A DNA stretch of 63,662 bases, filler included, from Reclinomonas americana ATCC 50394 (GCA_048213135.1; 7 parts of 6 records of this genome joined end to end with filler, not necessarily neighbours in it), one strand, 5' to 3'; shown: positions 1 to 63,662, numbered from the whole stretch's first letter. Translations and numbers: made by a program. Notes: a model not told the origin generated them from the letters alone.

Positions 1-1755
1 GACGACGCCTCCGACAATGACGACGACGATGATGATGATGATGATGATGACGACGACGAAAGCGAGAGTGATGGGGATTCCATGGGCGGCGACAGCGGCA
101 ACGACAAGGACGGCAACAGCGATGATGACGACGAGGACATCGACAATCGCAGCAGCAGCAGCAAGAGCAACGAACTGGTGGTGCCGTTGCCGGGCAAGGC
201 GCGTCGTCGGCGAGTGATGGAGGACGATGATGAGGAAGACGACAGGATGGTGGAGGAGGCAGAGGAGGACGACGGAGTGTCGGTGCGGCATTGAGTGTCC
301 TGCATTCTGCGTTTTGTCGGCATGACGCTCATTGATCACTGTTTTTGCTTGGGTCTGCGCGCAGATGGGCTCGTTCGTGGTACCGGACGATGCTGACGAC
401 GGTGGCAAGAAGGGGAAGAAGAACAAGAAGAAGGCCGACGACAAGCTGAAGGCGGCCGAGAAACGCAAGCAGCAGAAGCTGACGGCACTGCTGAAGCCGA
501 AGCGCTCCAAGAAGGAGGCAGCTGCACGTGCACTGCTGGCCACCAATGTCACCATTCCGGTGCACTGGAATCTTGCCTCGGCGCTGCCGAGTGACGTGCG
601 GGTTCGTTATATACATGTGTGTGTCGCTTGTCACCTGGTACACTCACGTCGCGCGACACAGAAACAATTCGAGGAGATTGTGGCGACGTATATTCTCGAA
701 GTGTCGCGAATCAACACGCGCTACCCAGAGTCCGAACATGCTGTGCGCATCCGCAACTACTTTGACAAGTGCGTTTGCATGCGCTGGAGAGGAACTGGTT
801 GTGGTTTGTGTGTGTGTGTATACTGACGTCGTGTCACGCAGTGTCATGGCGCCGCGACTGCTGGATCTCGTACCGCGCATTCAGATGCACGCGCAGAAGC
901 TACACATGGAAAACTACAAGCCTGGTGCGTTGCATCTATCCTGTGTGTGCATCTAGCTGACGTGCTCATATCCTGAATGACAATTGCAGAGGCCGACACG
1001 GTTCCGTACTCACAAGTGGCTCTCGAGTTTGTCAAGTGTGTCTGTCACGTGCTTTCGCTCGACAAGGATGTGGCTGGCTCTGTTCTGCGTGTGCGCAAGG
1101 TATGCCCGTGGCCGTCTGTGGTCAATCGATCAAAGTGATCTCTTCTCATCAGTCACGTGCAGAACATGTTGAAACTGCTGCGTGTGCGCGATTTCGACAG
1201 GTTTGCACTCATCAACCATGCGCACCGTCCTCCCTTCCCTAATGCCTTCTCTCTCCCCTGGCAGTGCTGCCGAGTTCCGTGAGCGTACGGGCTCGTTTGT
1301 GCTCCCGGATGTCATTTGTCGCTACTGCAACTACTTTGGCGACTTGGACATTCTGCGCGACGATACCATTGTCTCGGTGGAGCCGGGCGAGTCGTGGCGT
1401 TGCCCGCAATGCGATCAACAGTTGTGTTGCCATACAGCTTGCGTGTTCACTTGCTCGCATCGTGCTGATTCGTTGCTGTTGCAGGTACGATCGTTCACAA
1501 CTGGAGCACATGTTGGTTGGCATGGCGCGCGACCTGGTCAGCGCGTACCAGGTGCAGGACCTGAAATGCTTGCGGTGCCGCAAAGTCAAGGACACTGGCC
1601 AGGCGGCATACTGCACGTGTTCTGGCGGCTTCCGCTGTCTGTGCGAGCCTGACGCTTGCCGCATGTCGCTGCACACCATGCTGTCGATTGCACAGCGGCA
1701 TCGCTTCGACTGGTTGCAGGAGACGGTGGAGTTTGCAATTCAACAATTTGTGTAA
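1..1755 (+). CDS. POLE: DNA polymerase epsilon catalytic subunit, C-terminal part (5' truncated, 7 introns)
   Basis: The spliced product reads ALEFVKCVCHVLSLD...KNMLKLLRVRDF...FVLPDVICRYC...CPQC...YQVQDLKCLRC...CTCSGGF...FDWLQE, matching the CysA/CysB zinc motifs of Pol epsilon. Stop TAA at 1753-1755. Confidence 0.93.
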
Positions 1756-1851
1756 TCATAGAGAGAGAGAATAGGCGGGGGGGAGAAGCAATGCTTAACC
1801 ACAGTAACTAGTAAGATGTTTGTTGTTTAAATACACTCTATATGCAAATGT

Positions 1852-4800
1852 TTATGCAATTTTCTTGGGCGACTGCACATCATCAGCCGTCTCCTCGGCT
1901 GGAATGGCGAGCGGAACGAGCGAGGTGGAGCGGTAGTCGTTCTCATTCGATACCATTTCATATTCGACACGGTACAGATTCCATTGCGCACGTCTGCGAT
2001 CACGAGCGGGGATATGACAACGGCGCGCACACGCGCAGGACAGGCAAAGACACGCAGTACGTACCGACTGAGTTCAACAGCCGCCAACGCCGCCAAAAAG
2101 TAGTCTTCCGGCAGCAGCTCGATCTGCGAACAACGTATGAGCCACTCTCCATACATCGCAACTGCGACCACCAACAAACACACACACCTGCGTAATGGTA
2201 ATGGCCCAAGCGCAGCGGAAGAAAAAGTTGACCACCTGCACAACAAAAGTGAGTGCCGAGGTAAGCGCCTGCATATGTGTGCACACCATTTTTTGCTCAC
2301 CATTGCAACGTAGTACACAGCCGTCCACTTGTACAACAGATCATGGCGCAGCAACGGGGAGGCCGCCTTCTTCCGCCACAAACCCCAATCCTGCGCGCAG
2401 ACGCAACGTCAGTGACATGGACACGCACATACACAAAAACGTGCGCGACTTCACAGCACCATGGTGACATCCCACGAATAGGCGTACAGCGACGACATGA
2501 TAACCAGACAAATCCATATGATGCGGAAGGCGTCCCACGGTTCGTCGGGAGCTGGAACGTGGGTGAGCTAGATAGACGACAAGACACACAAGACACACAC
2601 GCACACACGCACATCCCAGCGTCGAGTGCAAGGTAGAAAACAGAATCACGGTGATGGCCGACATGTACTTGCCCGCGTTGACCAAGTGCAATTTGTTTCG
2701 CGTCTCAAAGTACTTGCGCAGGCATTGCATCAACCTGATCGCCAGTCCACAGTGAGCACCACTGTAACTGCACACACCAACAAGGGGAGAGATTCGCACC
2801 TCCACAAAAACGGCAGGAATGCCAACATGGGTCCGCCGTACTTGTTGATTCGTTTGCACTGACGATCGCCTGCAGAGATATCACTCTTCTTGAGCTGCAC
2901 GCTCTTCTCATCATTTCCCTCGCATCGTACCTTGATTCTTCCAGTTGCTGCTAATATAGAAGCAGAGTGTGTATTGCAAGTCCTGCAACGGGACGACCAT
3001 GCTGCGTGTGTGTTTGTGAGTGCCACATGCAACACTTGACAACGTTGTCATTCCATTCAGCAAACCTGGTCAACGAATCGGCGATGAATGTGGCGCGGAA
3101 GTTCTGTGACACACTAAGAATTCAGCGTCCGTTAAGCGGTGTTGTACGCACGGACAGCGAGGCACGAAACAACAATGCTAAAGGGCGTGATGAGCAGGCG
3201 TCCGAGTGACGTCAACAGGGACCAGCGAGTGGTCCACGGCAGGAACGGGAGCGGCAGGCACACAAAGAGCACGACCGTCAACACCAGGGCCAGCGGATAC
3301 ACACTCGTGTTACTGACGTCGAACGGGTCGTACAGATTGTGTGCGGCGCCAATGTACAAGCAGGCGTACAGTAGCCAAACAAAAGTGAGCACACCAGCGG
3401 CCTGCCCAGAGAAACACACAAGAAGAGTGAGAAATGCGCCGACACCTCTTTTTGACAACAACCCACACACACGGCGGCGTGCACCTTGAATGCCTCGAGC
3501 CAACTTAATGTGCGCCGCGGATCAAAATCAAGCAAGTAGACGTGATTGATGTTGTTGCGCGTCCAAATGAGCAAGTCGAAACCGTAGAACCACAAGTAGA
3601 GGATGAAGAGGCCCACAAAACGGAAAATCGGCGCCACCGCCTTCGGATCGTTCAGTTTGGAGTGGTGGTCCGGCGGGTGCGACACACCATACATGAACGC
3701 CAGCGCAATGGCCAACGTCAAGTTGATACCCAACGAGAAGGCCAGCACAAAAGTGTCCCAGTGCGTGAATAGCACACGCGGTGTGCGTAACACCGACAGC
3801 GCAGCCGCATGATTGCCACCCTTGAAAATGACCGAGTATTGCTCCTCAATCTCCCGCAGCAGCTCATTGACTTGCTCACCACGCAACGCCGGACTGCCGC
3901 GCAATCTGTGCAACGCTGCCTTGCTCTTGTGCACAATGTCGTGCGCGATCCTAATGTCACTCGACTCGTGCGCAGCGTGCAACTTGGCCAAGTCGCCTTT
4001 GCGAGTCCGTCTGGAGGCGAACAGGGTGTCGCAGTTGAATCACCGCTGCTACTGTCGCAGAAATAAAGGACATGGAAGCGACAACGCAACTGACTCCGAT
4101 GCGGTCGAATCGAGTACGAGCGATGACGCTCCCGATAGTTGGCGTCCGTTGTTTGCGCGAGCTGCTGGTACGAATCGTCAACACGAACGGCCGACAGACC
4201 GACAGCCGATGTGGACCGCCGCACGCCACCGCCACTGCCACCAACACTGCATGTACACGGAAGAATACTGAGCTGGCTGGATGGCATGCGGTAAACACAC
4301 ACATACACACGGCGCGTACCCCAATGATCGGCCGGCAGCGGCTGTTGTGTCACCATCACTTGCGCCCTGCGCAGTTGGGATGAGGACGTGAGTGCGACAG
4401 CGGGAGTGCATACATACTTTGCGCAAGCAACGAGCGTTTCGCAACTGCTGCTGCAGGCGTGACAGCGTGAGAGAGAAGTGGCGCCAAGTCGCTGGATGTG
4501 CCGGGACTGTGGCGACCAAACATGTCGGCAGATTCCGGTGCAGAGCCACTCGTCACCATTGGGACAGCGGCTGGGGAAAGTGATTTTCAGATGTGCCTCC
4601 AGGAATACAATGAGCACAGGCACAGGTACAGGACGCACAGAGTAGAGAGCTCGAGATGGCTATTGGTGGCGAGCGTTTCGGTTCGAATTGACGTGCAGGG
4701 GCTGGAGTGACCGGCGCCACACGGGGCGTCAGCACATCGAGGTCGTCGGTGGACGGCAAGACATCATCGTGCCCATCGTCGTCGGCAATCTCACTGTCCT

Positions 4801-6644: not shown

Positions 6645-8396
6645 ATGGAGTTGCACTTGTGCAAGACTGTGCTGAACACACTGGGCAAGGACCCGGCCTA
6701 CATTCTGGCCGCGCGGTTGCTTCCACCAGCAGTTGCGCTGACACACGCACGCACGCACGCGCACCGGCTTTCCGCACACTTTCACACACTTTTCGCACAC
6801 TCTTCCCCCCGTCGACTTCACTGACTTTCGCGCACGCAGGGCTCACGCTCACACGCGCTGCTGGCCGTGGCCAACTCGGACTTTGCCATCAAGCTGTACT
6901 CGCTGCCGGGCCTCGCGTTTGTAGGTGCGTGTTGTTGTTGTTGTTGTTGCTGCTCGTGCAGATGCGCATGTGCATCACCAGACACAAACACACTCACAGG
7001 CACTCTGGCGGGTCACTCGGGTCGCATTCAGGACCTGGCCTGGGTGCCTTCCAGTGGCCACCTCGTCTCCTGCTCCGACGATGGCAGTGTTGCTGTGTGG
7101 GATGTGGAGGCACTCAAGTCCGCAGTGGTCTTCAATGACTGTTTCGTGCCTCACACTCTCTAGCGTGTGTGTGCCTCGCTGCACGCCTCTCACATACATG
7201 AGTGCAGTGCCTGGAGGTGAAAAGTACTCGGTGTCTGTCAACGCCGAGGGCACACTGATGGCGTGCGGCTGCGAGTCTGCAGTCTATGTCGTGTTGCGTC
7301 TTGTCTGTGGTGCTTCCTTGTCATTCGTGCGCGCGCATTCCGCTGAGTGGAGCGCAGTGATGCAGCGTCGGGTGAGGTGGTGCGGCGATACGAAGATGTG
7401 CATCAGCACGATGTCACGCAGGTGCGCTTCCACCCGGTGAATACGCACATGTTGTACGCGGGTGACTCGGACGGTCTCGTGTGTGTCTACGATGTGCGGG
7501 AGGAGGATGATGATGAGGCGTTGATGTCGAGTTGCGTGCACTCTTGGCGGCCGCAAGTTGAGCTTGCTGCTCACCTGGCACTGCGGGGGCAGCCATGAAT
7601 CCCGAGGACCCGGTGCAGAGCTTGTCGTTCTTTGGTACCGACGGCGTGCTCATGTGCTGCACGTCGGGCACGCAGACGTTTAGTGTGTGGACGTTGGACA
7701 CGGTACGTAAGGCAGCCGTCGGCGCTTGCCTGCCGAGTTGTGCTCATTGGTGGGGGGTATGCGTGAGCAGGAAGATCGTCTGTACGAGGCCTCTGCGCTG
7801 CGAGACGAGGTGTCGGAGAAGGCGGGTGGCGTGCCCGTCAGCTACATTGTGGACTGCTTCGGTACGCCGGGCTCGGACGAGTTGTTGGTGGTGTGCGGTG
7901 ACGACAGGTGCGGCGAGGTGCTGCACGAGGTCTTTTGTGTTCGCGTGTTTTTCCTGACTCATTGTGTCTGCAGCGGAAATGTCGTGCTTTCATCGCTGGC
8001 GCACGACGAGTTGAGCGTGCTCACTGTGATCAAGGGCCACGCGAGCGTCGTACGCAGTGCTGTGTGGGAGTCTCAAGTTGCGTGTGTCACCAAGAAAACG
8101 TCGACTTGCGCGATCCGTACGTCTCACCCCCAGCATCGCTGCACAGAGCGGGGTACTGATTACGGGTGGTGAGGACTCTCGATTGTGCATGTGGTCACGC
8201 GATCCGCCAGCTGCCGACGCCGACAGCGGCAGTCATCCAGTTTCGTAGTTGTCGCCTCTCTTATCGCGATCATGACATGCACTCACGCATATTGTGTTCT
8301 GGTTGTATTTGTGTGGCGACAAAAAAGATCAGAGGAGGCGACGTTCTCGCCCAGGTTAGCCAAGGCAGCAGCCCGTACGCGAGACCACCGAAATGA
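6645..8396 (+). CDS. WD40-repeat protein, WDR89-like (about 9 introns)
   Basis: Motifs GHSGRIQDLAW, SCSDDGSVAVWD, YEDVHQHDVTQVRFHP, GDSDGLVCVYD, GHASVVRS and LITGGEDSRLCMW. The last acceptor (AAG at 8327) is inferred. Confidence 0.75.
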
Positions 8397-9403: not shown

Positions 9404-9424
9404 TTCACTCGGTTTCTTTCTTGA

Positions 9425-12400
9425 TTATTCTCGCTCGTCGTCGCCCGCCTTTCTCCGCTTGCTGAGTTGCCACGTGGACACCATGTCGCTCCACTCGCGT
9501 TCACGCTTGCCGCAGAATTGTGCCGTACGCTGCACGTGCTCCGCTGCGTGATGCATGACCAGAAGCTCGAGATGCTCGTTCGGCGCCTCGTGGGCCACGT
9601 ACGTCACCACACTGGCGCTCTTCTCCGACGGAATCAGCTTTTCGTACTCCTGGAAGCGGGTGGTCTTGGCGAACACCTCGAAAGTGCGCAGCGAGTCCAC
9701 CACCTGCGCCCAGTGACGCTGCTCCAGCAGCAGGTGAAAAATCATCTGCAGGTGCGCAAACAGCGGCGCCTGCATGCAGCGGCAAGAGTGAGAACGATCA
9801 CTGTCACTACCCGCCGCCGGCATGCGCTACGTACTTGCTGCACCGGGTCGATGCGGAGGCCGGCGGTGTCGCGCAGGAAGCGTGACACGGACAGCGTGCA
9901 CCAATCCATCGAGTCCCACAGCTGCACGGTGCGCTCGAGGATCTTGACGAGGTCCACGCTACGCAGCGATGTGCACAGCCGGCTGCACACGTCCATGGCG
10001 TGACCGAATGACAGGCACATTTCGCGACCACGCTCCTGCGTATCCAAGGTAAGTGTGTGAGGCACACGAGCAGAGGACCAGGGTTGTTTCTCTCTCTCTC
10101 TCTCTCTCTCTCTTTGTGTGCTGCCTACCGGGTGCGACATTTCCTCCTCGCGGCGCACATCAATCCACGAGGTGGCGGCCGCACACAGCTCCGACACGAG
10201 AATCGGCATGAGGCCGGCTGTCGGTGTGACGCGCAACATGGCCGCCACACAGTCGAACAGGCCACATGCCACCGGCAGTGGCAAGCTGTGCACCTGGCGG
10301 AGCGGTTGCACCAGGCGCTGGAGAATGTGACTGCACTTGACCACAACCGCTTCCGGTAGTTTGCTTGGCAGGCACTCAACCACGAATCGCAGCGCGTGCA
10401 GATCAGCGTCACTGCCGCCGCACGAATCCAGCGCCGCCAGCACGTGCTCACGGCCAGCCGGCTGCAGCACGGGAAAGACAGCCTGCACGACCGTGGCGAT
10501 GCGATTGCGTATTTCCACGGCGCTCGGAACATCCACTCGCGTGCACAGACCCTGGCGCAAGGGAGCACGCATGTGAGCGTGAAGCTCGGCTGCACGTCTC
10601 GAGCGCTCATACCGTCTGCAACAGTCGCGATATCCACTCCGCCTGTGTGGCTTCGTCACACATGGCCAGAAACGCCGGCCACACGTAGCCGGCGAAAAAC
10701 GCATGACACCCAGCGTGCGGATGCGTCAACATACGCAGCAACAGCGACTCCACGGCCGCGTAAACGTCGGCTGTGCGCACAAATGTGTGAGGAAAGCGGG
10801 AGGCACTTGCACACACACCCAGAATAACCACTCACATGGTCTTTCCACAATCGACGACGGGAGGCCCCACACGGCATGCGGCGGCGATTCATCGGCGTAC
10901 ATGAGCGAGGCCACATCGCGTGTGCACAACGTGGCGAACATGCGCACCAGCGCCAGCCACATGGCCGCCGAGTCCAGCATCGCCACGGCTAAGGTTGTTG
11001 TCAACAGCAAAACGAGAGGGAGAAATATACACCAAGAACACCACGCCACACACACCACTCGATTCCGCGGCACTGCCACTACTGCCACTGCTGCGACGAG
11101 TGATTAGCTGCGACAGATTCTGGCTCAGGTACGAGTCGATGAGCAGCCGCTCAAAGATGCTGGAGGAGTCGTCGCTGCTCGGGAGCATGTGATTGAAGAG
11201 CAGCGAGAGACGCTCGTCGCGAGTGGGCTCGTTCAGCAGCACGGTGACCAGCAGTGCCAGTCGAGCGTGCGCCCAACTTGACAGCTGCAGTACTGTTGTC
11301 GAGAATGAGAAAAAAAACACCGCTCCTCTCTCTCCCTCTTCCGCGTACCTCGATCGGCGGGCACATTGACCGAATCGTCAAAGAGAATGGCGCGATGCAC
11401 CGAGAGGAGCATGGATGGATCGCCGGCACGCGCACTGTCGACCACCGCCGCCGCCAGGGCGTCGGCCGATTCGCAGAGTGGCTCGGAGAACTCGTTGCGG
11501 CGCGACGGAGTGAGACGCGAGGCCACCACGGCCCCGGCCAGCGACTTGAGCTGCACCACCAGCTCGATGATGCGCGGGTACGTGCTGGCCATGAGTCCAG
11601 CGACCGGACTCTGTGGCGAGCAGCGTTAGCGGGCTGTCGCCGTCACGTGCGCGTGGACACGGCGAAGGTACCTTGACGACTGCGGTGATGTTGCTGACAA
11701 AGAAGCGACACAGCTTGCAGAAACGCGACCACGTCTTGCTGTCGACCGCACCGTCCTTGCTGGCCTGTGTCGGAGAGCACACACAGTTGCGTCGTCAGCA
11801 GCAGCAAGTCTCGCGCTGCAACGGTGCTTCGCCATCTGTCTCCGCTGGCATCGCCCATCTCTCACTCCCCCGTACCCACTCTCTCGCTCACACGCCCGCC
11901 CACCCTCCCAACTCCCTCCCCTCCCACGCCTCCGTCTCACACATCCGGGAGTCTCACATGCCAGTGCGCACGGAGCGCTACCCAGCGGTGATCACAGGGG
12001 AGAGAAGAGACAGCAAGAAGGACGAGGGGAACGAGAACAAGAGAGAAGAAGACGAAGAGAAAGAGAAAGGCAGAATTCAGTTATTCTGGGGCCGCGCGTG
12101 CACCGCGATGACGATTGTCTCCTCACGTCACCCGGCCGCCTTTTACATCGACAACCCGTGGTGATAGAGAAAGAGGGAGGGTAATACAAAGAGATAGAGA
12201 GGAACGGGTGTTGATGGCGAAACATGACTGACCTGCACCGCCGCATCCAAGTTCTCGGCCGCCAGGTCGAGCAACACCTCCACCACCGCGCACACTGCGA
12301 CCATTGTTGGGCATAAGTAACGCTGTTGTCGACAAGTGAAGAATGCAGCCACGCAACAATCACGACAGCACGTCTCGTCGTGCGCAATGCCGTTGTCGCC

Positions 12401-13337
12401 GCTGACCGGCAACGCACACAGAACCTTGACAATGGCCTTCCACGCCGCGCTGGTCACTTTCAGGTCCTGGCTGGCACGACGAGCAAAGTTCGAAATGCGC
12501 AACGCCACTGCACAAAGAGCAAAGACGCGTGCGGGTTTGTGCGAATGCTACCAACCAACCAACAACATCTCGCGACGGAAAAAGCAACTGCTCAGCGCCC
12601 ACGGCGGCAGCACGGCGTGTCTGTGCAGAATGGTGCTACCGCCCATGGCCGGCACGCCTTGATACAAGGTGATGAACGACAAGGTGGCATTCTGCAGCTG
12701 CGCCAACACATCGCGACTCTGTGGCCATGGGCGCACGCACCATGAGTGGCAACACACCCAGCGGCACGCAGCAAGTCGCGCAACTCCTTCCACAGCTGAC
12801 ACAGTCTCCCACGCCACCAACGCCTGCGACAAGAAGCGCGACACGTGCGCCAGACAGTCGGCCGCCGAGGGAATAGCAGTGACAGGCGGAGCACAGGCGC
12901 CGGCCTCCATCAGCTTGTGACACCAGGCGACCAGGTCGGTGCAGAGTGAAACGATGCGCAGAGCCGTCTACACATTGCATCCATAAGGAGACAGCGACAC
13001 ACGGGCGCGCACAGAGAAACGCACGGGAAAGCCCACAGGTTGCATAATGTGCTGCAACAGATCGGCATTGGACGACAACTGCACGCACGGATTGATCAAT
13101 CAATGCACGCGCACAAGAGTGTAATAACGCACGCACCTCTGTAAGCGGCTTCTGTACACGTTCAAAGTAGGCGGCGCTTATCACCGCCTGATCCACCTCC
13201 GCATCAATGTCATCCAATCCATACACCGACGGCGACGAACCCGCCGCCGATTGCGATGAAAGTGCGGCGCGTGCACGCAGAAACGTCTCCACTCGCTCCA
13301 CACATGTCATGCACACAGTCAGCGACGACGAAGCCAT
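9425..13337 (-). CDS. FIRRM: FIRRM/C1orf112 (DUF4487, FIGNL1-interacting) homolog, about 13 introns
   Basis: Spliced motifs AAWKAIVKV, KLCRFFVSNI and IFHLLLEQRHWAQVVDSLRTFEVFAKTT resemble C1orf112. The start codon is inferred. Confidence 0.65.
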
Positions 13338-28362: not shown

Positions 28363-29667
<1,305 letters not shown>

Positions 29668-48186: not shown

Positions 48187-51100
48187 TTACCCATTCCCAC
48201 TCATGCTCCCACTCATGCTGGATGATGGTGACTGATTATCAATCGATCGTCGGGTCTCACGCGCGTTTGCAGCAGCGACCAAGTTGCGCTCTCGTACGAG
48301 CGTGATGAGGCGATTGATGACCTGGCATGCAGTGAGATTCTGCCGAGAGCGGACATGCAAGCAAAGAATGACACACCTCGGCGCAGTCGTCCTCGTTGAA
48401 GACGATTCGTTGTGACGGTCTCGTGCGTCGCATCAGCGAGTCGGAGGCCATTCGGAGAACTTTGACGAGCGACTCCTCGGCCTCGGCCGACGTGGAGTAC
48501 ATGGAAGACGGCGCGCCACTACCGCCGGAAGAACCGGCTCCACCTTCGGAATCGCCACCAGTTGCCAGCATCCGCAGCGCCTCTTCTCGGCGGCGTTCAG
48601 CCATGGTGCGATCAACGGATTCACGAATCAACTCGTCACGCTCACGCTCCCACTCCAGCTGCTCCTGCACCACCGCATGCCGATGCTCGATGGACAAGGT
48701 GTGTACCGCCTCCTGCACGTCGACTCTGTCTCCTGGTGTGAGCAACGTATACGCACACACAGGTCATGGAACTCACTCACCGGGTGATCTGGTGCGTCGG
48801 CGGTGTCATGGTCAGCAGCTTGCTACGGAAGTGATCCACGGCGGCCTCGTCAATTTGCAGTCGACGGACCAGCAGCGCATACGGCACCTCCACGTCGTTG
48901 GGTGCCCACTCCAGCGTCTGCGATGCGCGCACCGAAAGCTTATGCAGCACACGCAGGTACATCAAGACCTTCTGCTCAGCACACAAGTCGCGTCAGTGGT
49001 GCTCTCTTGCGCCAGCACAGCATGAAAAGAACAGCCTCTCTCACCTCCACATTGAGTGCAATGTTGGCTCTCCTCTTGGCCACGTACTCGCGCACCACAC
49101 GTTGCACGAAACGCACTGACCGCGCAAAGGCCTCCACCGCCGTGACGAACTTGCGAGTGTGTGACAGGCCCGAGATGTAGAAGCGAATGAGCTCGACCGC
49201 ACGCCGCTTGCGCATGAGGCGTACTTTGAGCATGGCACGCCACATGTTGCGGCCGAGCACCTTCATCGCCCGCCGAATCACGAGCATACCGCGCGCCTTG
49301 ACCACCGGGAAGAAGCGCTCCTGGATGACACGAGCGGCCCACTCGCGCATGCGAGCCTCCTTCCACTCCTTGCGCAACTCGTTGAGACGGTCGCTCATGA
49401 ATTCGAGTCGCACGGCCAGATTCGCCAGTGCCAGCCACGTCTTGATCTGTGGTCGCAGTCGTCGAATGAATTGCGCCCGCTTCGACTCCTCCTCGAACTG
49501 CTGTTGCCGTTGCTCGACGCGCGCCACCGTCTGCTGATGATGCTGCAGGCGCGCAGCCACACGCTCCGCATGCATTCGCGCTGTTTCCTCCGCATGTTGT
49601 CGCGTGCGCTCCGCCTTGGCTTGCTCGATCTGCTGCCGACGCTCCGGGCTGCGGTCGACCACTGACTTGGTGTTCCGATAGATGGCATTGGCCGAGACCG
49701 GACGCAATAGGCGCTGCTTGCGACGCTGTGCAGGGGGGAGGGTATTGAGTACAACATACGCGGGGTAGAAAAAGGTATTCGGGTAGAGCACACGCAACAT
49801 CCTCCTCCATTTCCAGTGTGCGCTTGAGAAACACCTTGGCCGCCTCCTCATCGTGCAAGTACAGATCCAAGCGAGAGTTGACACGCTCCTTGAGATTGAC
49901 GTGTTGCGGGCCGCGTCGGTGACTGTCCTCGAAACTCATGTCGACCAGCATCTCCGTTCCACCACCGCCTTCGTCGTCCGAGCCCACCGCACGAGGTGAA
50001 ATAGTCCTGCGCCGTGAGCGTCGCGACATGATGGAAGCCGATCGAGCCCGAGGGCGCTTTCCGGGCGTCCCACCGGTCGCAGGTCCCGGTGTGTTACCCG
50101 CACCCTGCACCACCGAGCCACGATGTCCGTGGTGCGACGACATGCTGGCCAGCAGTGCTGGCTGGCGATGCACGTGGTCGGGAATGAGGCGATCAGGGAT
50201 GTTGCCGCTGTTGAGCGAGCGCTGCATCTCCTCCACCTCATCTGCGGCCCGAGTCAGTCACACGAGGCACCGAAAGTACCACGTGAAGCGCAGTACAAAC
50301 GCAACGAATCACTTGTGCAATGTCGTGAGTCACAGCGTGTGCACGCCGCGCCGGCGTCTTGCTCATGGTCGACAAGGACTGTACCGTGGTCATGGACTGC
50401 GACATGGACGACAGCGTCTCCTCTTCCGGACCGAGGTGGTCGAGATCGGTGAGGAAAGTGGAGCCTGCGTCGACAAAGTGCAACGTGTCAGCTCTTCTGT
50501 CCGCTTCTCTCTTTCTATTCGCACGCACCTCCACCGGGAGTCGATGGCAGCAGACCGTCGAGGTCAAACGTGGACAGCAGCGGGGTGGACGACATTTGCG
50601 GCGTCACCGGCGGTGGTTCCCGTTGGGCAGCCAGCCACCACTGGCTGGTGCGCGGCTGCTTGGTGGTGGAGACGGCGGCGGCCTCCATAATCACCGATGC
50701 CGACGACGCCGGCGACGATGCGGACGATGCCGACGAAGGGGAGCCACGAGACACGGCCGAGGTGGCGCGTCGGATCAACGACTTGGCATTGGTGCCGGTG
50801 CTCACCAGCTGTCGCCGGGCGGTGGCACTGAGCAGCGTGGTCGACGTCGGCGAAGCGACAGCAGTGGCCGAGGAGACAGCAAGCGGTGTCGATCGACTCT
50901 TGATGCGCCACCACGTTGGGCGCGTCGCCGACGCCGTCGACAGAGCCGACGCCGGCCGCGGAGCGTGCTCACGGAAGAAGAAGAACGGCTCACCATCGTC
51001 GTCACGCTCAATACCACTGCCACCACCAACTATCTTCCGACTGCTCGTTCCCACATCATCGTCGCCGTCGTCGCCATCGTCACGAATGATCCCAGCCGCA

Positions 51101-53792: not shown

Positions 53793-56700
53793 GGTGGATG
53801 TACGACTTATGGCGAGGTACGTGAGGGAGTCACGCAGCAGATCGATCCTGCTGTACGGCCAAGGCGGATGTACGGTACAGCACGCCCACTCGCTCTCCCC
53901 CGCTCTCCCCACATGCTCTCCTCTTCTCGCTCTCCCTTCTTGCTCTCCCCACATGCTCTTCCTTCTTGCTCTCCCTTCTTGCTCTCCCCCTTCTCGCTCT
54001 CCCCCCTCGCTCTCCCCCTCTCGCTCTTCCTCCACTCGCTCTCCCCCACTCGTTCTCCCCCCTCTCTCTCCCCTCTCTCATTCTCCCCTCTCTCATTCTC
54101 CCTCTCACTCTCCCCTTTTTCGCTCTCCCCTTCTCTCCCCCTGTCGCTGCTCCCCTTGTCGCTGCTCTCCAGTCTCGTTGCTCCCCCTCTCGCTCTCCCC
54201 CTCTCGCTCACCCCCTCTCGCTCTCCTCCACTCGCTCTCCCCTTCTCACTCTACCCTTCTCACTCTCTCCTCTCTCATTCTACCCCACTCGCTCTCCCTC
54301 TCGCTGCTCCCCCTCTCTCTCCCCTTCTCGCTCTCCCCTCTCGCTCTCCCCCTCTCGCTCTCCCCTCTCGCTCACCCCCTCTCGCTCTCCTCCACTCGCT
54401 CTCCCCTTCTCGCTCTCCCCTTCTCGCTCTTCCCCTTCTCGCTCTTCCCCTTATCGCTCTTCCCCTTCTCGCTCTTCCCCTTCTCGCTCTCCCCTCTCGC
54501 TCTCCCCTCTCGCTCTCCCCCTTCTCGCTCTCCCCTTCTCGCTCTCCCCTTCTCGCTCTCCCCTTCTCGCTCTCCCCCTTCTCACTCTCCCCCTCTCTCC
54601 CCTATGCTCTCCCCCTCTTGCTTCTCCCCCACTTGCTTCTCCCCCTTCTTGCTCTCCCCCTTCCCCCTTCTCATCCCCAATCTCAGGGCCCTCTCAAGGG
54701 CGCCATTGAGATGCAACGCGACTCGGCCGTTCGTGTGGACGATGAAGAGACAGACGCGACGAAGCAACAATTCGCGTTCACTGTGCAAACCGCGCACCGT
54801 CTGTATCGTTTGCGTGTATCCTCGGCCGAGGAGCGCACCGAGTGGATCAATGCTCTCCGACATGCGCAGGTTTGGTGGTGATCTTTCCGTGTGCGTCTGT
54901 GTTTTGCATAACTTACTCACGCTGTCGACGACAGGAGCAACAAGTGGAGGACGACGTGCGTGAGCTGTACAACGGACTGTGTGCGGAGGAGGCACAGCGT
55001 GTGGGCCATGTGTTTGATTGCCCGTTCTGGATCCAAGTTCGTGTGCACTTGCTGTTTGCCTGGAGTGTCGAGCGACTTGCTCACGGAATGCTTTGGTAGA
55101 TCGACTGGTCCTCGGCGCCCTCGAGTCACGTGGTGACCACGCAAGCCAGCGAGCTGTTCTACGAGCACATTCAGAAGAACCTGCTGCCGGCCCTTCTGCA
55201 GCTTGCGGTTCGTGACACCTGTCCGCGCGCTCTCCCTTCCCCTTCTCACTTCCCTCCCTCCCCGCAGTCCCAGCAACGCGACAGCGTGCAACACGACTAC
55301 GATATGCGCACGATCCGCGAGGGCGTGCAAGGAGTGATTGTGCGCTGGCGCGAGGCCACCGAGACGCAGTCGACGTACGAGCCGGCCACCAAGACCCTCA
55401 CCGACATTTTCCCGTGGACCAAGACGACTCCGGAGTCGTTTGTCGCCGAGCTGCGCGCCAAGAGCGTGGTCATCGAGGCCGTGGCCAAGGAGACCGAGAA
55501 CCACGTGTCGAGTCGTTTGGCGTCGGAGTACGGATGCAACCTGGGCGCCATTGGTTCCATCACTGTGGCGGTGCGTCATTACAGAGTCGTCCATGGTGTG
55601 CTTGTGCCCACCTTTTCTTTGTTGCAGGTGGACCGCGAGTCTATTCGGCAGGCGCCGTATCCCACTCGCGCCGCCGGTCTGCTGCAACAGGCAGTGTCGC
55701 CCAATGTGACCAAGGCGCTGCAGCAGGCGGCCAACGAGGCCACCTCCATGATTCAGGCCGTACGCGAGCGCCTGCGTGGTGTTCGGTGAGACTTTTTGTG
55801 TGCTTCTGCTCTCCTCCTCGCAGTCTTTGACTCTCTGCCTCTGTCAGCATCTTCCACGTGGGCCCTCGCGCCTCTGCGCCGGCTCGTGTGTTTGTCGACA
55901 ACCGCACACAAGAGCTGCAAGTCCCCTTTAATGCCGTGCCGCCCATCACTTCGCCCTCCGGTGCCTTGTCGCCCTCAAGTGGCGGTGGCAGCAGCTCGTC
56001 TGCTGGACCGGACACGACATATGTGCCGACCTCGTTCGACATCAAGGAGGCGCTGCTGGCGGTGCGATTCACTCTTCTCCTTCTGCATTGTTTGGTTGAA
56101 AAGGCTGTCACTCAACTGTGTGCGTGACAGTGGTACCAGCTCGGCGTGGAGCTGAACACGCTGACATCGACTGTCATTCCACGCGTCTCTGCCGATCTTC
56201 GATCGATTCTCGGCGACGATGTTGCGTGTGCGCACTTCCATAGGCTGTCCTCTTCTCTCCGTCGCGTGCTGAGTTCGCGTGTGCAGTTTGTGCTGGAGGT
56301 CGACATTGACTCGTTCGTGTCGTCGGCGCGCCCTGTCGCCTGTGTCCGCTTCCTCAACGAGAGTCGCATCGAGCGGCTGCACCGCCTGCTGGTGGTGGAG
56401 GCCAACGACACCACCGGTGCAGAGGTGCTTCGGCAGCGTGTCAAGAAGCTTGTGTTCCGGTACTTGGACCATGGCTCCTGTGCGTCTGTTTTTCTGTGTC
56501 GTTGCCTCATGCGTGTTGTCACAGACACCGCCGACGTGACGATACCGACGAGTTCTTCAAGTTCAGCATGTCGGGCGTGCTGAGCGACATTATCGACGGC
56601 ACCAACCATCCGATTCAGTGTCAAAAGGTGACGTGAGCTTATGATTTATCGCTCTCTCTGTCTCTTCGATTGGGTGCAACTTTCTTGGCCTGCCATTGTA

Positions 56701-59700
56701 TCCCCTTCTTTTTACATTCCTCTTTCATGTCACTTGTGTCTGTTTTCCTCGCCCCCTTCTCTGCGCATGCACTGAGTGTCTCCCTTTACTTTTCTTCTCT
56801 TCGGCATTTACTCTTTTTCTTGCTCGGTGACTGCGCTCCACCTTTTCTGAGTGTCTCTCTTCTTTTGTCCCCTTCCCTGCGGCCTGTTCTTCTTCCGTAT
56901 TCGATGATTGCGCTTGCTTCTGTGTCTCTCTTCCGTTCCCCTTCTCCTCTCCGCGCCATTTGCCATCATTCTTGCTCGGTGACTGCGCTCCACCTTCAGA
57001 GTGTCTCTCTTCTCTTCACTCAGTCTCTGACATCTTATCTTTGCTCGGGGATCGCGCCTTTACAAGTGTCTCTCTTCCGTTCATCCATCCTCTCCACGCC
57101 ATTTACTCTCATTGTTGCTTGGCGACTGCGTTCCACCGTTACTGAGTGTCTCTCTTCACTGTACCCTCTTCTCTACGGCCTGTTCTTCTTTCGTACTCAA
57201 TGATTGCGGTTTCTCTCATGCCTCCCTTCCCTTCGTCCTCCTCTCCACGCCATTTGCTCTCATTCTTGCTCGGTGGCTGCGCATTCTCCCGCGTCTCTCT
57301 TCCGTTCACCCCCTCTTCTCTTTCTCGGTGCTCCACCTTTTCTGAGTATCTCCCTTCACTTCACCCTCTTCTCTACGGCCTGTTCTTGCTTTCTATCGTG
57401 CCTCCCATCCCTTCACCCTCATCACCCGCCTTTGCTTTGCCAGGACCACGAGATGCGCGGCATGCTGCGGCAGTGGCTCTCACTTGACACACGTCGCATC
57501 GAGGCCGAGTTGCGACAGATTCAATCTTCGTTCCAAGCAGCTGGCGCCTTGATCCACGGTCTCTACGACACGCAGCTGGAGTTTGTCGTTGCGTCTCGCG
57601 TTCTCCTCTCTCTCTCCCTCTCTCTCCCTCTCAGCACTCCATCTGCAGGTCGACGCCGACAGCTTCACACAACACCCCGACGGCATCGACGCACTGATCC
57701 TCATGCGCAACTCCGGTGTTGTCTCCGAGCTCACCCTCGCGATTCGTGCGGTGTTTGACGACGCCACCGACATCAAGTCGATTTCGAGCGCGGGTGGTGA
57801 CTATGCGACTCCGCACAAGACTGTGCGCCTGGTCGAGCGGCCGAGTCCGGCTGAAGAGCAGCAGATTCGCGACCACTCGCTGACCTTCCTCAAGGAGCAC
57901 CTGCGCATCGTGCGCATTGCGTTGCGTCTTATTTTCCCCCCTCATCACTTGTTCCTTTCCGTACTTTTGCTGACCCGGAATGTGTGTCGCACACGCAGTC
58001 TGGCACGCCCGCAGAGTGCCATGTCGCCGACCGGCAGCGGCCCTGGCGGACAGCAGGATACTGTTCGCTACCTGCGCGAGTGGCAGACTCTGCTCTTTAT
58101 GCTGCGCTTTGACGGTGAGAGCTGTTGTTTGAGCATCCTGCTGTCGATCGTGTGTGATCTGAATCGTTGGTCTCTTTCCGCAGAGGGTTCGGCGGAGCAG
58201 CAGCTGCTGAAGGAGGAGGGTCTCCTCGACGACATGATCACACCACGGACACTCTTGCCGCAGACGCCTCGCGTTCCAGGCGATTCGTCGTCGTCCATGA
58301 GTTGAGTGACCAAGGATCACTCGGCGATTTTGTGTCGCACGCTGACGCCCCTGTGTCGCACAGGCCCGCCCCCGCAGGTGGCTCGCAATCCCATGTTTGC
58401 CACCAAGAATCTGCTTTTCCCGCAGTCGGACGAGGTGCGCGCCGTCATTCTGCGCGACTGCCCCGTGCGCGAGAGCAAGTACATTTTCGCGCTGAGCGAG
58501 TTTATTCAACCACGGTGCGGTCGCGAGTATTCACACACACACCACGCCGTGTCTCCCATTCTCACTCGCCTCCTGTAATAGGTATGAGAAACAACTGAAC
58601 AACCTCCTCGGCATCCAGCTCTCCGATCCCGACGCCATCAGTCTGTCGGTTCGTCACCACCTCCTGTGTGTTGGGCTGGTGGGCGGCATCTGATTTTTTG
58701 TGTGTGCAGGTCCTGCTGGAAAGCATCTTGTACTCCTCGTCAGCCTCGGCGGCATCGACCAACGGCTCCGGCGGCAGCTCGTCGCGACAGCGTCGTCCTT
58801 CCGTACTTCGGCGCTCCCCGACAGCTCTGTCGCACGTGACGACACCGTCGTGGGCGGTGAGCGAGTACGAGCAGCCGCCGATTGCGCGCGAGGCCGCCAA
58901 ATCGCTTCAGCTGCTGACATCGTCGTGGGGCGAGAACGTCATTGGCGTGGCGCTCGCGTGCTTGCATCAGGTGCGCCGGCCTCTCTCTCCCCCTCCTCTC
59001 TCTCCTTCTCTCTTTCCCTCTCCTTCCCTCTCCCCCTCTCCTTCTCTCTCTCTCCCTCTCCTTCTCTCTCTTCCCCTCTCCTTCTCTCTCCCCCCCTCTC
59101 TCTCCTGTCCCTCACTGACCCCTCTCCCTCATGCGTGCAGGTCCGCGAGGATCAGCAATGCGGCAAGTATCTTACGGATCGATTACGGTCGCTGGATCTG
59201 GTCAATGTGCCGCAGGGTGCCAAGGGGCGCGTACGCTACTCGCTCATGACTCTGGACAAGGGCGTCGAGTCGCACATATTGTTGCGTGCTCTCAACGGCA
59301 CTTGCACTTTTTGTGCGCGTGCCGGCATGATCAGCTCACCATCCTTTTGGATGCAGAAATCTGATGCGAGGCGACGACCTAGCAGCCGACGATGGAGTGC
59401 GGAACAACAAGCGCATGTGTGTGGCGGTGTCGTTGGAGTCGGGACCGCGCGGCTGCTTCGACTCGGAGGACTTTATGGCGTTCTTGAGGGTGCGCCGCAG
59501 CACCACTTTTCATTATTTTTTCGTGTTCCTGTTCCCTCACCAACCGCCCTTGCCTGTTCTTCCACAGCAATTTGCCAACCAGAACCGGCGTATGCGGGAA
59601 ATTCTGCTGCAGGCACGCGAGCAAGAGGAGCAAAAGCTGTTGGCACGCGAACGCGAGGAGCTGCGACTGCGTGAGGAGGCGGAGAGACGACAGAAGCAAT

Positions 59701-61068
59701 TGTTGGATCTGGTGCGTCTCATTTGTGTTGCGTGTGTATGCTCCGCACACACCCACGTTTCGTTTTCGCCAGGAAACCAAGCTTCAGGAGAGGGAGCGAG
59801 CACTGGCACAGGAGGCGGAGCGACTGCAGCGTGAACGCGCCATGCCAGTGTCGTCCAGCAGTCCCGTGCCTGCTGTTGCGTTTCCCTCTATCTTCAGTCA
59901 CTCTTGTATCGATCTCACCTCCCCCCTCCAGGCCGCATCGCCAGTGGCATCGGAGGAGGCGGCAGCGTTGCGACGACAGTTGGCAGAGTTGCAGGAGAAG
60001 CACGACGTGCTGGCACGCAGGGTACCACATTTGGAGGCGACAGTGGCGCAACGCGATGCCGAGATTACAACCGTACGTGAGCAGTTGGCGGCGGCGACTT
60101 CCGCCTCCCACGCACGCGACGACGAAGTGGACAGTCTGCGCCGGGCATTGGCCGTGGCCGAGGCCTCCGCTGCCGCCGCGCAGACCAACGCTGCGGGAGC
60201 GTCGTCAGTGGTGGCTGCCAATGAGCAGATGAAGCAACTGATGCACGAGTTGGAGACTCGCTTGCGCGCCGCTCGTGGTGAGCTGGAGGCCGTGCGCACA
60301 GCCAAGGTGAGCGACAAGTGTCGTTCGTTTTTTTCGCAGTCCGCATTGACTCCTGCTCACGCGCCATTGTTGCAGGATGCACTCGAGTTGACTCGCGGCC
60401 GCGAGCGTGAAGTGAACGAGCATCGCATCAACGAACTCAGCACGCAGGTCGGCGCACTGACCGACCAGCTGGCCGAGTCGCGAGCCATTGGTGCCACACC
60501 CGAACGCCGCATGCGTCTGCTTGCCGATGGTGCGTGTGTATGTTGTCACTTGCTCTGTTTTGCGGAAAGGACTTCGACTCTGATTGTGCACACACGCAGG
60601 TCAAATATTTGTCAAGCACGGTCATCGTGGAGCTCCACATGCACGTTTCGTGCAGGTAAAGGGCATGAATTTGGTGTGGACCACACCCGATCGTCGCAAG
60701 GCCGAACGCAGCGTGTCGCTGGTCGGTGCCACCGTCAAGAGTGGCAACTCGGGCTCCGACATTCTGTCGCGTGCCGCAGTCTGTTTCGTCCTTCTCGTTT
60801 TCTATCCAGTCGCCTCGTACCGTGATCCTCACCATTGTGCACACACACACAGGCAACAAGATCACCCAGACATTTTACATCCAGACGGCGGACCGCACGG
60901 TCGATTTTGAGGCGGCCAATCACATTGTTCGCGAAGAGTGGGTGCAGGCGCTGCAGGCGGTGAGCGACAAACACACACGTACGCACAGAGCCAACAGCTT
61001 GCGCCTCACATTGCTGTTCTTTCGTGCAGCACATTACCGAGAACTCGCGGACCGTGCCACCGGCGTAA
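53793..61068 (+). CDS. Large protein with an N-terminal PH domain, a coiled coil and a C-terminal PH domain (5' truncated, about 22 introns)
   Basis: PH1 reads PLKGAIEM...FAFTVQTAHRLYRLRVSSAEERTEWINAL. PH2 reads GQIFVKHGHRGAPHARFV...RTVDFEAANHIVREEWVQAL. Stop TAA at 61066-61068. Confidence 0.75.
53890..54675 (+). repeat. Intronic pyrimidine minisatellite (about 14-15 nt unit, TCGCTCTCCCC(C/T)TC)
   Basis: Dozens of degenerate tandem units. The long ORFs called here are artefacts of the repeat. Confidence 0.85.
56700..57420 (+). repeat. Intronic degenerate tandem repeat (about 75 nt monomer, about 150 nt higher-order unit)
   Basis: CTTGCTCGGTGACTGCGCTCCACCTT occurs at about 56818 and 56970, with variants at about 57042, 57114 and 57263. 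CGGCCTGTTCTT occurs at about 56880, 57176 and 57376. Confidence 0.7.
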
Positions 61069-61207: not shown

Positions 61208-62267
61208 TCACCAGAACGGACACCATCTGCGAGGATGCGACGAGGAAGCAAGTGAGCAAAGGGGGGCGGATGGGTGACACTCTCTCCACTGATTGACACT
61301 CACCCAATGTAACACTCGCACAAGTTTTCGTGGCTGCGTGCTTGCAAAATTAGTCGATCAACCTGCTCGGCGACGCCAAGTGGTTGCGCGTTAAAGTCGC
61401 GACCATTAAGTTTGTTGGTGATTCTCTGGATGACCGACATGGCCTTTTCGTTAATGTCCTCTTCGCGTGCACCCAGTCCCTCCTCGCCGTGCGCCTCGCG
61501 CAGCTCACGCTCGCGCACACTGCGTGGCATGTGTCCGAGGCTGCCCTCGTCTGTTTCCACAAAAAACACTCCGCTGTCAGCTTCCGGCACATGCAAAGGC
61601 GCTCACGTGTTCGCCAACGCAACGAGACGAGGCCATTTCCGCTTGCAACTCAGCCAGCGTGGGTCGCCCAGAGCTGGCACCACCGCTCGACACCATCATT
61701 CCGGCCAAACCGCCAGAGCCTGAGCCGCCGGCCACCGGCGTGCCCATGCTGCCTGAGGCTCCCGAGGCTCCGGAGCCGCCAGTTGAACTGTGTTGTGGTA
61801 CGTTCTTTTGCGTCAGCAGACGCCATGAGATCAGCGGGTCGTACACAAAGGCCTCCAGCATGGCCATGATGGAGTCCTGTTCACACACAAACAAACAGTC
61901 CCCTCTGTCAGCATCCACAATCCGCTTCACACACAACAACGACGGATAATGCATCACCTTGTTGTCGCGAATCACACGCATTACACTCTCGCACGTGCTG
62001 CGGAAGGTGCCCTCGATGCCGGACACCTGCAAGTGGCACACACACATTTGTGAGCATTGGAGCTTGAGACAGGAAGAGGGAAAAACCGGCACACGCACCT
62101 CCATGGCGTTGACCAGCATGCGCGTGAGGCGGAATGGGATCTTCTCTGGGTACTTTTCGCGCTTCATGGCCACCTCGAAGCAATCGCCAAAGTCAATGTG
62201 GATGACCTTGCCCGAGTGCCGATCGAGCAGCAGATTGGAGGGATGTCTGTCGCCGAGACCGAGAATA
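61208..62267 (-). CDS. TOR: Target of rapamycin kinase, kinase C-lobe plus FATC (5' truncated)
   Basis: [62 protein letters not shown] and [14 protein letters not shown]. Confidence 0.97.
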
Positions 62268-62396
62268 NNNNNNNNNNNNNNNNNNNNNNNNNNNNNNNNN
62301 NNNNNNNNNNNTTAATTAATTAANNNNNNNNNNNNNNNNNNNNNNNNNNNNNNNNNNNNNNNNNNNNTGTTGGCTCAAGGCGTGCTTGACGTGCAG

Positions 62397-63662
62397 TGAA
62401 ATCGCGTCCGAGTTCGACGTGGAGTTTGATGCGGCGGAGGCGCGGCGAGGCATGGAGATGCCCAACTTGATGGCCGACATTCCCTCCATCAATGGCGCAG
62501 AGTTTTTCCGACAGCCCGACCCGGTGGATGCGGCCGACGACGGTGACAGCTCACATGGCGGTGGTGGCGGTAGCGGGAGTGGCGGTGCAGGCAGTGGCAA
62601 TAGCGGTGGTGGTGGCGGCATGAGTGGTGCAGCGGGAAGTTGAGTGCAAGGAGAGGGCGTGATTGATTGCTTTCTTCAGCGATGCTCATCGGTGTCGCAC
62701 GGCCAGGTGGAGTCTTCCTGGCTCAGGCCCCGGCCGCCGTCAATGGAGCCAATGGCCTTCCACCGCCGCCGCCATATGTGCGTGCCGTGTACATGCGATC
62801 GGCAGATGCCGTTTTTCGTGTTGCTCACTCACTCTATTTCTCGACGCAATCCCACAGAGTGCCTCGGCCACCACCACAACGGCGACAACCATGCCTGCCT
62901 CGGCAGCTGCGGGGCATGTCATCTATCCGCCACCTCCGTACGCACCGGGGCAGCCACCACCACCACCAATGCCACCGTATGCGGCCGTCGGCCACGCCGG
63001 CATGATGGGCATGCCAATGATGATGCCGCCACCCGGGTTCGCCCCGCTTCCCGGCATGTACGTGGGCTACGGCATGCCGATGATGCCCGGCGGCGACATG
63101 GTCATGGTTGGTCACGGCGGCCCAGTGCCCTCGGAACCTCCGCCACCCTACATGGAGACGCCGGGAGGCAGTATTCCATCGCCGGGCCTGGGCACGTTTG
63201 GCGCCGACGATGGCGATGTCGCCGACGACGACGAAGACGACGACGATGATGACGGTGATGCCGATGATGGCGAGCGTGCTCGTCAGAGCGAGAAGCAGCT
63301 GTCGGCCGTGCAAGCCAGCCTGTCCGACATTCCATTCGCTCGTGGACCAGTTGCGCGCCACAACCTCGTTTTTCTGTGTGTGCTGTTGCACTGAGCTCAA
63401 TAATGTCGTCTCTGTGCACCACGTGTAGCCTCCGCCATACGCACCGCCGGGACCTGCAGTGCAGCCGGCTGCCACGGCCGGCTTTGTGCCGTCGGCGCCG
63501 TCGGCACCACCGGGTCACCAGCCGTATGCGTCGCCGGTGCCCGAACCCTTTGTGTCACAGCCGATCGCCGGTCGCGTCAACGCCTTTGCACCGCCACCAC
63601 CACGTCCAGTACAACCTCGACCGCCACCGGCTGCCGCCGCCGTTCCCGACAACGACTTTGAT
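62397..63662 (+). CDS. IST1: IST1 (ESCRT-III associated) homolog, internal fragment
   Basis: The fragment starts EIASEFDVEFD (end of the Ist1 domain), continues through a Pro-rich linker and ends VPDNDFD (start of the DFDDLxxRF MIM motif). Confidence 0.6.

Follow-up and report, generated by a model that had tools for sequence, protein, structure and literature searches.

Does the spliceosome of Reclinomonas americana routinely accept 5' splice sites whose consensus block lies one base too far inside the intron? The question is raised by a window of 63.7 kb from strain ATCC 50394 (GCA_048213135.1), by which we mean the whole stretch of DNA analysed, 63,662 nucleotides in length, for which a first-pass annotation had proposed a major donor class (here called the shifted class) comprising roughly one intron in four, in which introns start with GT-T-GCGT or an analogue of it in place of the ordinary GTGCGT-type donors. 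The window is gene-dense, with a G+C content of ~58%, and its genes are split by short introns of ~65 nt, one roughly every 350 bases. Several contigs are strung together in it by linkers of 44 N, TTAATTAATTAA and a further 44 N (23497-23596, 27600-27699, 31181-31280, 41436-41535, 53693-53792 and 62268-62367), and since the linkers contain TTAATTAATTAA, counts of TAATTA are inflated; gaps appear as longer runs of N at 27061-27162, 35320-36199 and 42919-43461. Our results rest on this window together with distant protein homologues.

The shifted motif is real at the level of the raw sequence. Among the 42 donor coordinates proposed earlier, 41 do start with GTT, the exception being 1431, which reads CATACAG, while the GTTGTGT that was evidently intended lies at 1421. 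GTTGCGT accounts for 26 of these 41, the remaining donors in the list reading GTTGCGC, GTTGCGG, GTTGCGA, GTTGAGT, GTTGAGG, GTTGTGT, GTTTCGT, GTTCCGT or GTTCAGT. Counting both strands, GTTGCGT occurs 39 times in the window, against 16.1 occurrences expected from a first-order Markov model, and is thus clearly above background composition, while the heptamers carrying another base at the third position, GTAGCGT, GTCGCGT and GTGGCGT, occur 4, 19 and 23 times with expectations of 4.4, 21.3 and 16.8. A signal further downstream, which requires no gene model at all, sets the same sites apart: per GTTGCGT site (n=39), 0.33 branch-like CTNA[CT] motifs begin 40-49 nt downstream, compared to 0.17 for GTGCGT (n=115), 0.04 for GT[ACG]GCGT (n=46) and about 0.07 for the control pattern GC[AG][ACT]GT (n=482). 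When all 5-mers are ranked by their association with such a branch, TGCGT comes first, GTTGC fourth, TTGCG sixth and GTGCG seventh.

Introns were predicted with a purpose-written exon-intron dynamic-programming finder, restricted to GT..AG introns, for which the acceptor, branch and length terms were learnt from 41 seed introns having ordinary donors only. In a flat run every GT was treated as equal as a donor, and in a trained run donors were scored by a 5-mer table derived from the data; a run on codon usage alone, with flat signals and without 3' signals, gave meaningless introns and was set aside. Even in the flat run GTTGCGT emerged as the top donor heptamer, with 17 of 170 introns, compared to its share of 39 among the 8338 GT sites of the window (binomial p about 1e-17), and the wider pattern GTT[GT]NG[TCG] made up 29 of the 170 predicted donors but only 228 of the 8338 GT sites. 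The trained run gave 177 introns in 33 gene models, whose donors divide into 43 of the shifted class (24%), 69 in the normal register with G at +5 and T at +6, and 65 weaker ones, in good agreement with the proposed quarter. The shifted class is uniform, 29 of its 43 donors being exactly GTTGCGT, and the heptamer is a donor at 29 of its 39 occurrences, compared to 29 of 115 for GTGCGT.

The trained run recovers 33 of the 42 donors in the earlier list, plus 1421, and leaves out 15782, 56221, 62639, 63350, 3170, 4445, 5679 and 51589. A plausible branch and a CAG or TAG acceptor are nonetheless present for six of them, and two, 5679 (GTTCCGT) and 51589 (GTTCAGT), are doubtful as donors. The finder is crude, merging some genes and missing in-frame introns (56221, for example, is read through), so that the intron counts are lower bounds. 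One such missed intron, of 78 nt and in frame, lies at about 61880-61957 (-) in the C-terminal exon of a TOR kinase, with AAG|GTGATG as donor, TGCTGAC as branch and AACAG as acceptor, and was revealed by the 26-residue insertion that it would otherwise create relative to mTOR. Donor placement is also ambiguous where microsatellites sit just inside an intron beside the donor, as they often do: (GT)n/(CA)n and (CT)n repeats are very common (e.g. 36341-36365, 42574-42590 and 26698-26712), and GTGTGT occurs 295 times in the window with 71 expected.

Two further lines of evidence point to the first GT of the shifted donors as the cleavage site. In a frame test that is independent of the parse, where the best coding frame is determined in the 60 nt on either side of introns defined by their signals, an offset of zero fits 14 of the 19 donors in the shifted class and 15 of the 18 ordinary ones, the random GTC controls giving 23/31/27. 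A donor at the second GT of GTTGCGT was rejected, the corresponding offset of +2 fitting 1 of 19. Among the 43 shifted introns, 40 have no frame-compatible GTNNGT within 30 nt.

Protein homology agrees at all four of the junctions in conserved blocks where it could be brought to bear. In a DNA polymerase epsilon (Pol epsilon) gene, the exon preceding the intron 1421..1484 (+; a|GTTGTGT, with the last exon base in lower case; 64 nt, phase 2; in the trained run) ends at residue 51 of 5vbn_B and the next exon begins at residue 53, which leaves exactly one split codon. The same holds for a Siw14/PFA-DSP-like phosphatase, as had been proposed, where the exons flanking 29193..29250 (-; t|GTTGCGT; 58 nt, phase 2; in the trained run and the earlier list) end and begin at residues 37 and 39 of 1xri_A. 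The remaining two junctions lie in a PolX-family polymerase, for which 44 homologues were retrieved using one exon as query and against which the spliced model aligns as a single segment. Across 46223..46290 (-; c|GTTGCGC; 68 nt, phase 1; listed, its flanking frame also given by the Protein Data Bank (PDB) and Pfam) the model aligns to 14 PolX homologues with no indel, in line with the earlier claim for this junction, and at 46312..46377 (-; a|GTTGTGT; 66 nt, phase 1; listed) the split codon encodes Ile, as in 12 of the 14 homologues, while sliding the junction by one base would give Ser. The microexons of 13 and 6 codons in this gene fit a conserved palm strand without indel. A third shifted intron of the same gene, 46418..46498 (-; c|GTTGCGT; 81 nt, phase 0; in both runs and listed), has its junction in a variable loop, and its support consists of frame and spacing only (22 residues, with 20-24 in Pol lambda and Pol beta). 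Searches of Pfam with 58 exon translations confirmed the reading frames of Pol epsilon, PolX, EXS, phosphatase, WD40, PH domains and TOR, although such matches are too coarse to fix single junctions.

At the EXS junction homology does not have the role that it had been given. The plausible intron 3104..3170 (-; t|GTTTCGT; 67 nt; listed) competes with a donor 3 nt upstream at 3173 (-; GTTGTTT), which is in frame as well and is the one chosen in the trained run, and the matches to XPR1 in the PDB are weak (E about 0.7), so the choice between the two is not fixed by homology.

One could suspect that the class is an artefact, arising either from mis-modelled junctions or from an assembly or sequencing indel that adds a T to GTGCGT donors. 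The introns are all predicted, the finder did return nonsense when run without 3' signals, and an extra base inside an intron would disturb neither frame nor homology. A donor model that allows any GT nevertheless still selects GTTGCGT, and four junctions are fixed by protein homology. As for an indel, the error should hit GTGCGT everywhere, yet the ratio of GTGCGT to GTTGCGT is 29:29 at donors and 86:10 elsewhere, and such an error would neither remove the G at the end of the exon nor add an A at -1, both of which are features of the class described below. Because these ratios and the exon sides differ, an assembly indel is unlikely, and we regard an artefact of either kind as highly improbable.

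Beyond the donor, the shifted introns resemble the ordinary ones. The branch 5-mers CTCAC, CTGAC and CTCAT are common to both classes, the branch A lies at a median of 20 nt from the exon in both, CT[ACGT]A[CT] is found in 35 of the 43 shifted introns, the acceptor is CAG in 43 of 43, and the median lengths are 68 nt (shifted) and 66 nt (ordinary). This likeness of branch, acceptor and length indicates that shifted introns are of the major (U2-type) GT-AG type. The uniformity of the donor heptamer might in itself point to a separate type of intron, either U12-like minor introns or mobile introner copies that carry their own donor. The branch motifs and the CAG acceptor, however, are those of ordinary introns, and GTTGCGT is unlike the U12-type consensus, in which a long conserved donor and the branch both differ from the major type. 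An all-against-all BLASTN comparison of the 177 introns found 24 intron pairs with any match, none of them a pair from the shifted class; the longest match was 36 nt, the matches were microsatellite-like, and the 3 short ones left after low-complexity filtering included none from the shifted class. With no sequence in common beyond their signals, the shifted introns are not copies of a mobile intron, and the chance that they form a separate type appears negligible.

How, then, would such donors be recognized? The bases around the cleavage site differ between the classes in a manner that bears on the question. The base at +3 must be T: GT[ACG]GCGT is a predicted donor at 0 of 46 occurrences, compared to 29 of 39 for GTTGCGT (Fisher 1e-14). 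On the exon side, G at -1 is found at 1 of 29 GTTGCGT donors and 16 of 29 GTGCGT donors (Fisher 2e-5), or 2 of 43 and 36 of 69 for the whole shifted and ordinary classes, and at 44 of 73 donors with a weak intron side. A at -1, by contrast, is present at 17 of the 43 shifted donors compared to a background of 19.5% (p=0.002), and is most marked in the members with a weaker block, 9 of 14 of which have A at -1 (p=3e-4) and 7 of 14 have C at -2, thereby spelling CAG across the junction. The first-pass annotation had described the donors as the consensus with an extra T inserted at +3. The GTTGCGT donors bear out that the consensus block is displaced inward by one base, but because only T is accepted at +3, the exon-end G is not enriched and the weaker members favour A(-1) and C(-2), the donor is better described as an ideal G|GTGCGT in which the G at +1 is changed to T and cleavage occurs one base upstream. 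The T-only +3, the absent exon-end G and the displaced A(-1)/C(-2) signal are new compared to the earlier reading. The class thus exists in the sequence, restores frames and homology, has a normal branch and acceptor, and carries a shifted exon-side signature.

All that we say about pairing with U1 and U6 we infer from these patterns, and the interpretation that we consider probable is that these are ordinary major-type introns on which U1 pairs one base out of register. The donor would have the overall look CA-G-T-TGCGT, with the shifted block mostly GCGT and less often GAGT, GTGT, TCGT or GCGC; it resembles the classical CAG|GT consensus plus block moved by one base, a T standing where the usual +1 G would pair. 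The first G of the intron would occupy the U1 slot of the usual last exon G, T+3 would occupy that of T+2, and the exon bases at -1 and -2 would take the slots of -2 and -3. U1 binds the 5' splice site first and U6 takes over later. As cleavage would stay at the only GT present, the pairing with U6 that follows would have to accommodate an additional base, and, judging from the known handover from U1 to U6, U6 might pair after the departure of U1 with one U bulged or with looser spacing. One could speculate further that the spliceosome of this lineage routinely accepts two spacings between cleavage site and block, and employs the longer one for a quarter of its introns, by means of an adaptation of its own, in the U1 5' arm, the U6 ACAGA region or proteins that position the 5' splice site, such as the 27K tri-snRNP protein or PRP8, a suggestion that we put forward tentatively and do not favour.

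The most direct competitor to this shifted pairing is a bulged U, where U1 would keep its normal register (G+1:C8, U+2:A7), one U of +2/+3 would be looped out, and GCGU would pair as usual. This register is known experimentally from human cells (PMC4856993), and the two identical adjacent U's would make the bulge positionally degenerate. U at +2 and +3 ahead of the block, as this register requires, is present in all 43 shifted donors by the definition of the class. Nearest-neighbour energies calculated with the canonical U1 5' end, as given in PMC4856993, which may not be that of this organism, also favour the bulge where G is present at -1 (-1.1 kcal/mol, compared to +0.7 for the shifted register). 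Such sites are the exception here, and for A|GUUGCGU the order is reversed, the shifted register coming to +0.1 kcal/mol and the bulge to +2.2; without G at -1 the bulge is about 2 kcal/mol worse. A bulge would moreover leave C9 available for the exon-end G and, by our own prediction, enrich for it, contrary to the 1 of 29 observed; the weaker members are enriched at -1 for A rather than G, and looping out would not in itself call for a T, in conflict with the strict requirement at +3. We consequently consider a plain bulge unlikely.

A dedicated or altered small nuclear RNA (snRNA) could also produce two donor classes, as the first-pass annotation had suggested, along with a relaxed U6 ACAGA-box register. 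The lineage would then possess an additional U1, or a U6 altered in its ACAGA region, with a pairing arm that matches GUUGCGU directly, so that two variants served the two classes. The size of the shifted class and its uniformity would suit such a system, as would the very poor pairing predicted between GTTGCGT and canonical U1 and the mild clustering of shifted donors by gene (permutation p=0.03). On the other hand, the displaced CAG is to be expected from one ordinary U1 arm, and branch, acceptor and length are the same in both classes. Nor does the window contain an snRNA gene at the Rfam gathering score or at E<=1, where only microsatellite-like miRNA and chance-level matches were obtained. 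We consider a dedicated snRNA a candidate of low probability.

Several points weigh against the shifted-register interpretation or qualify the evidence for it. Every intron is an in-silico prediction, known here from sequence alone, and the learnt donor table is self-reinforcing, so that only the flat run and the checks by homology escape this circularity. Acceptor, branch and length were scored with one set of terms in every class, and the likeness of their introns is in part a matter of construction, although it is independently backed by the model-free branch peak downstream of GTTGCGT. An ordinary-looking, frame-compatible donor lies nearby in 3 of the 43 shifted introns. Two of the four junctions that homology fixes, 1421 and 29250, are followed by an exon beginning with G, and there the protein cannot separate GT..AG from a one-base slide, which would produce a TT..GG intron. 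G is rare before GTTG across the window (13%), so the result at -1 amounts to a lack of enrichment, avoidance not being proven, and the A(-1)/C(-2) signal in the weaker members is based on 14 sites. Finally, both registers pair very weakly with canonical U1, ordinary sites reaching -1.6 to -4.9 kcal/mol, and the real U1 arm or its helper proteins may therefore differ.

Comparable donors have been described in human, as rarities. Of 201,541 human 5' splice sites, Table 3 of PMC4856993 assigns 68 to the 'bulge +2/+3' and 51 to the 'bulge +3' register, about 0.03% in each case, which supports the earlier statement that the mammalian counterpart is a rare exception. In sequence these sites show the same pattern, an additional U standing between GU and the block, but here the pattern amounts to 24% of the predicted introns, and a plain bulge is disfavoured by the exon-side statistics. 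Closer to our interpretation is the shifted U1 register that PMC4856993 describes, citing Roca and Krainer 2009, in which the U1 pairs are likewise displaced by one, the block sits one base deeper in the intron, cleavage at GU is kept, and recognition does not depend on an exon-end G. According to that source the human cases are isolated and atypical and were demonstrated by mutation and suppressor U1, whereas the donors here make up 43 of 177 predicted introns, have a tight consensus of their own in GTTGCGT, and are seen in genomic sequence. A different division, of 5' splice sites into two principal classes that rely on the exon side (U5 loop 1) or the intron side (U6 ACAGA), is described in the portions of PMC9803359, PMC11732430 and PMC11842720 available to us. 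The same trade-off is visible in the window, where donors with a weak intron side often have G at -1 and the shifted donors carry all of their information in the intron; the exon-side and intron-side classes of those sources use one register, however, while the shifted class differs in spacing as well. Among protists, the GC-rich Ostreococcus lucimarinus likewise combines short introns with donors of the GTGCGT type and branches of the CTGAC type, but it is intron-poor and its donors are strictly GTGCGTG, with no one-base-shifted class mentioned in the available part of PMC2483917, the source that also gives a mean length of about 56 nt for the introns of P. brassicae. A search of the literature, with subscription journals outside its reach, found no lineage in which GTTGCGT-type donors form a major class.

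The choice of the exact bond by the spliceosome has so far been studied mainly on a few human and yeast reporter sites. If the interpretation is correct, this genome would offer hundreds to thousands of natural cases in which exon and intron positions compensate for a shift, and would show whether snRNAs or positioning proteins have co-evolved with them; if two spacings are indeed accepted, it would constitute a natural system in which the U1 register is uncoupled from the choice of cleavage site genome-wide. On a practical level, gene finders trained on GTRNGT would miss or misplace about a quarter of the introns, and a donor model with two registers is needed.

The remaining shifted-class predictions are distributed along the window as follows. 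Both runs support, at positions contained in the earlier list, the introns 4011..4090 (-; a|GTTGCGT; 80 nt), 6732..6839 (+; a|GTTGCGC; 108 nt), 7141..7207 (+; t|GTTTCGT; 67 nt), 7531..7592 (+; a|GTTGCGT; 62 nt), 8077..8146 (+; a|GTTGCGT; 70 nt), 14222..14298 (+; a|GTTGCGT; 77 nt), 14391..14455 (+; a|GTTGAGG; 65 nt), 14750..14833 (+; c|GTTGCGT; 84 nt), 14940..15031 (+; t|GTTGCGT; 92 nt), 22780..22843 (+; a|GTTGCGG; 64 nt), 29935..29998 (+; t|GTTGCGT; 64 nt), 30095..30155 (+; a|GTTGCGT; 61 nt), 30967..31037 (+; a|GTTGCGC; 71 nt), 32612..32691 (+; a|GTTGCGT; 80 nt), 36546..36610 (+; a|GTTGCGT; 65 nt), 49726..49798 (-; t|GTTGCGT; 73 nt), 50242..50305 (-; c|GTTGCGT; 64 nt), 57921..57998 (+; c|GTTGCGT; 78 nt) and 58301..58363 (+; a|GTTGAGT; 63 nt). 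Listed likewise, and all reading GTTGCGT, are those found in the trained run only: 7293..7357 (+; preceded by t; 65 nt), 12295..12357 (-; t; 63 nt), 21595..21660 (+; t; 66 nt), 22147..22216 (+; t; 70 nt), 37057..37126 (+; a; 70 nt), 42291..42358 (-; c; 68 nt), 57588..57648 (+; c; 61 nt), 59281..59356 (+; t; 76 nt) and 18713..18909 (-; t), the last of which has no branch motif and an uncertain acceptor, its 197 nt being atypical. The trained run also gave the listed intron 61551..61623 (-; c|GTTGCGT; 73 nt) of the TOR kinase, whose exons match mTOR and whose junction falls in a variable region.

Other introns were absent from the earlier list. Both runs predict 12719..12784 (-; a|GTTGCGC; 66 nt), with an alternative in-frame GTGTGT 27 nt downstream; 22611..22680 (+; g|GTTGCGT; 70 nt), the sole GTTGCGT donor with G at -1; 27254..27329 (+; t|GTTGCGT; 76 nt); 39675..39752 (-; a|GTTGTGT; 78 nt); 59727..59787 (+; t|GTTGCGT; 61 nt), with an alternative in-frame GTGCGT 15 nt upstream; and 60783..60852 (+; t|GTTTCGT; 70 nt), which interrupts a PH domain with Pfam matches on both flanks. 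The trained run alone adds 26585..26660 (+; t|GTTGCGC; 76 nt), in a weak gene model, and 59875..59931 (+; t|GTTGCGT; 57 nt). A doubtful member, 54870..54934 (+; g|GTTTGGT; 65 nt), is present in both runs, and has a weak block that is perhaps that of an ordinary weak donor.

Plausible introns that were listed earlier and are absent from the models include 15782..15854 (+; a|GTTGCGG; 73 nt), for which the best acceptor is the CAG at 15854; 62639..62706 (+; a|GTTGAGT; 68 nt), with a branch-like GCTCAT and a CAG acceptor; and 63350..63428 (+; a|GTTGCGC; about 79 nt), where the 3' signals are weak and the acceptor is uncertain. The listed 56221..56286 (+; t|GTTGCGT; 66 nt) is in frame and stop-free, with a branch-like TGCTGAG and a GTGCAG acceptor, and 4367..4445 (-; a|GTTGCGA; 79 nt; listed) has a good branch and CAG (score 4.0), the finder having chosen a 13-nt microexon in this region instead.

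The shifted donors are unevenly distributed among genes, with 5 of the 7 introns of the WD40 gene 6645-8248 (+) and 7 of the 12 introns of the PH-domain gene 57453-61082 (+), compared to 0 of 6 and 0 of 5 in other genes (p=0.03 by the same permutation). A further donor pattern, G|GTTTGC with G at -1, is predicted at 1201 (+), 3065 (-) and 26835 (+), and may be a recurrent weak type or chance.

The lineage appears to be very poorly sampled. Among 1.84 billion representative proteins, the best match to the 111-residue PolX exon is 40% identical, and the homologous-protein search with this exon as query found no relatives; with a WD40 exon as query only generic, mostly bacterial WD40 proteins were retrieved, the protein atlas matched only generic WD40 clusters, and two scans of metagenome contigs found no relative.

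Two observations concern the genes themselves. The PolX-family polymerase at 45859-47862 (-) seems to be without two of the three catalytic acidic residues: in the alignment it has R-V-D where Pol lambda has D-V-D, and the palm-strand Asp, present in 14 of 14 aligned homologues, is replaced by Met. Judged from the sequence, the enzyme may be inactive or repurposed. Finally, two adjacent and almost intronless genes, 23659-25029 (+) and 25134-26450 (+), have by eye the look of a tandem duplication, their products, about 437-439 residues long, being ankyrin-like and very similar to each other.

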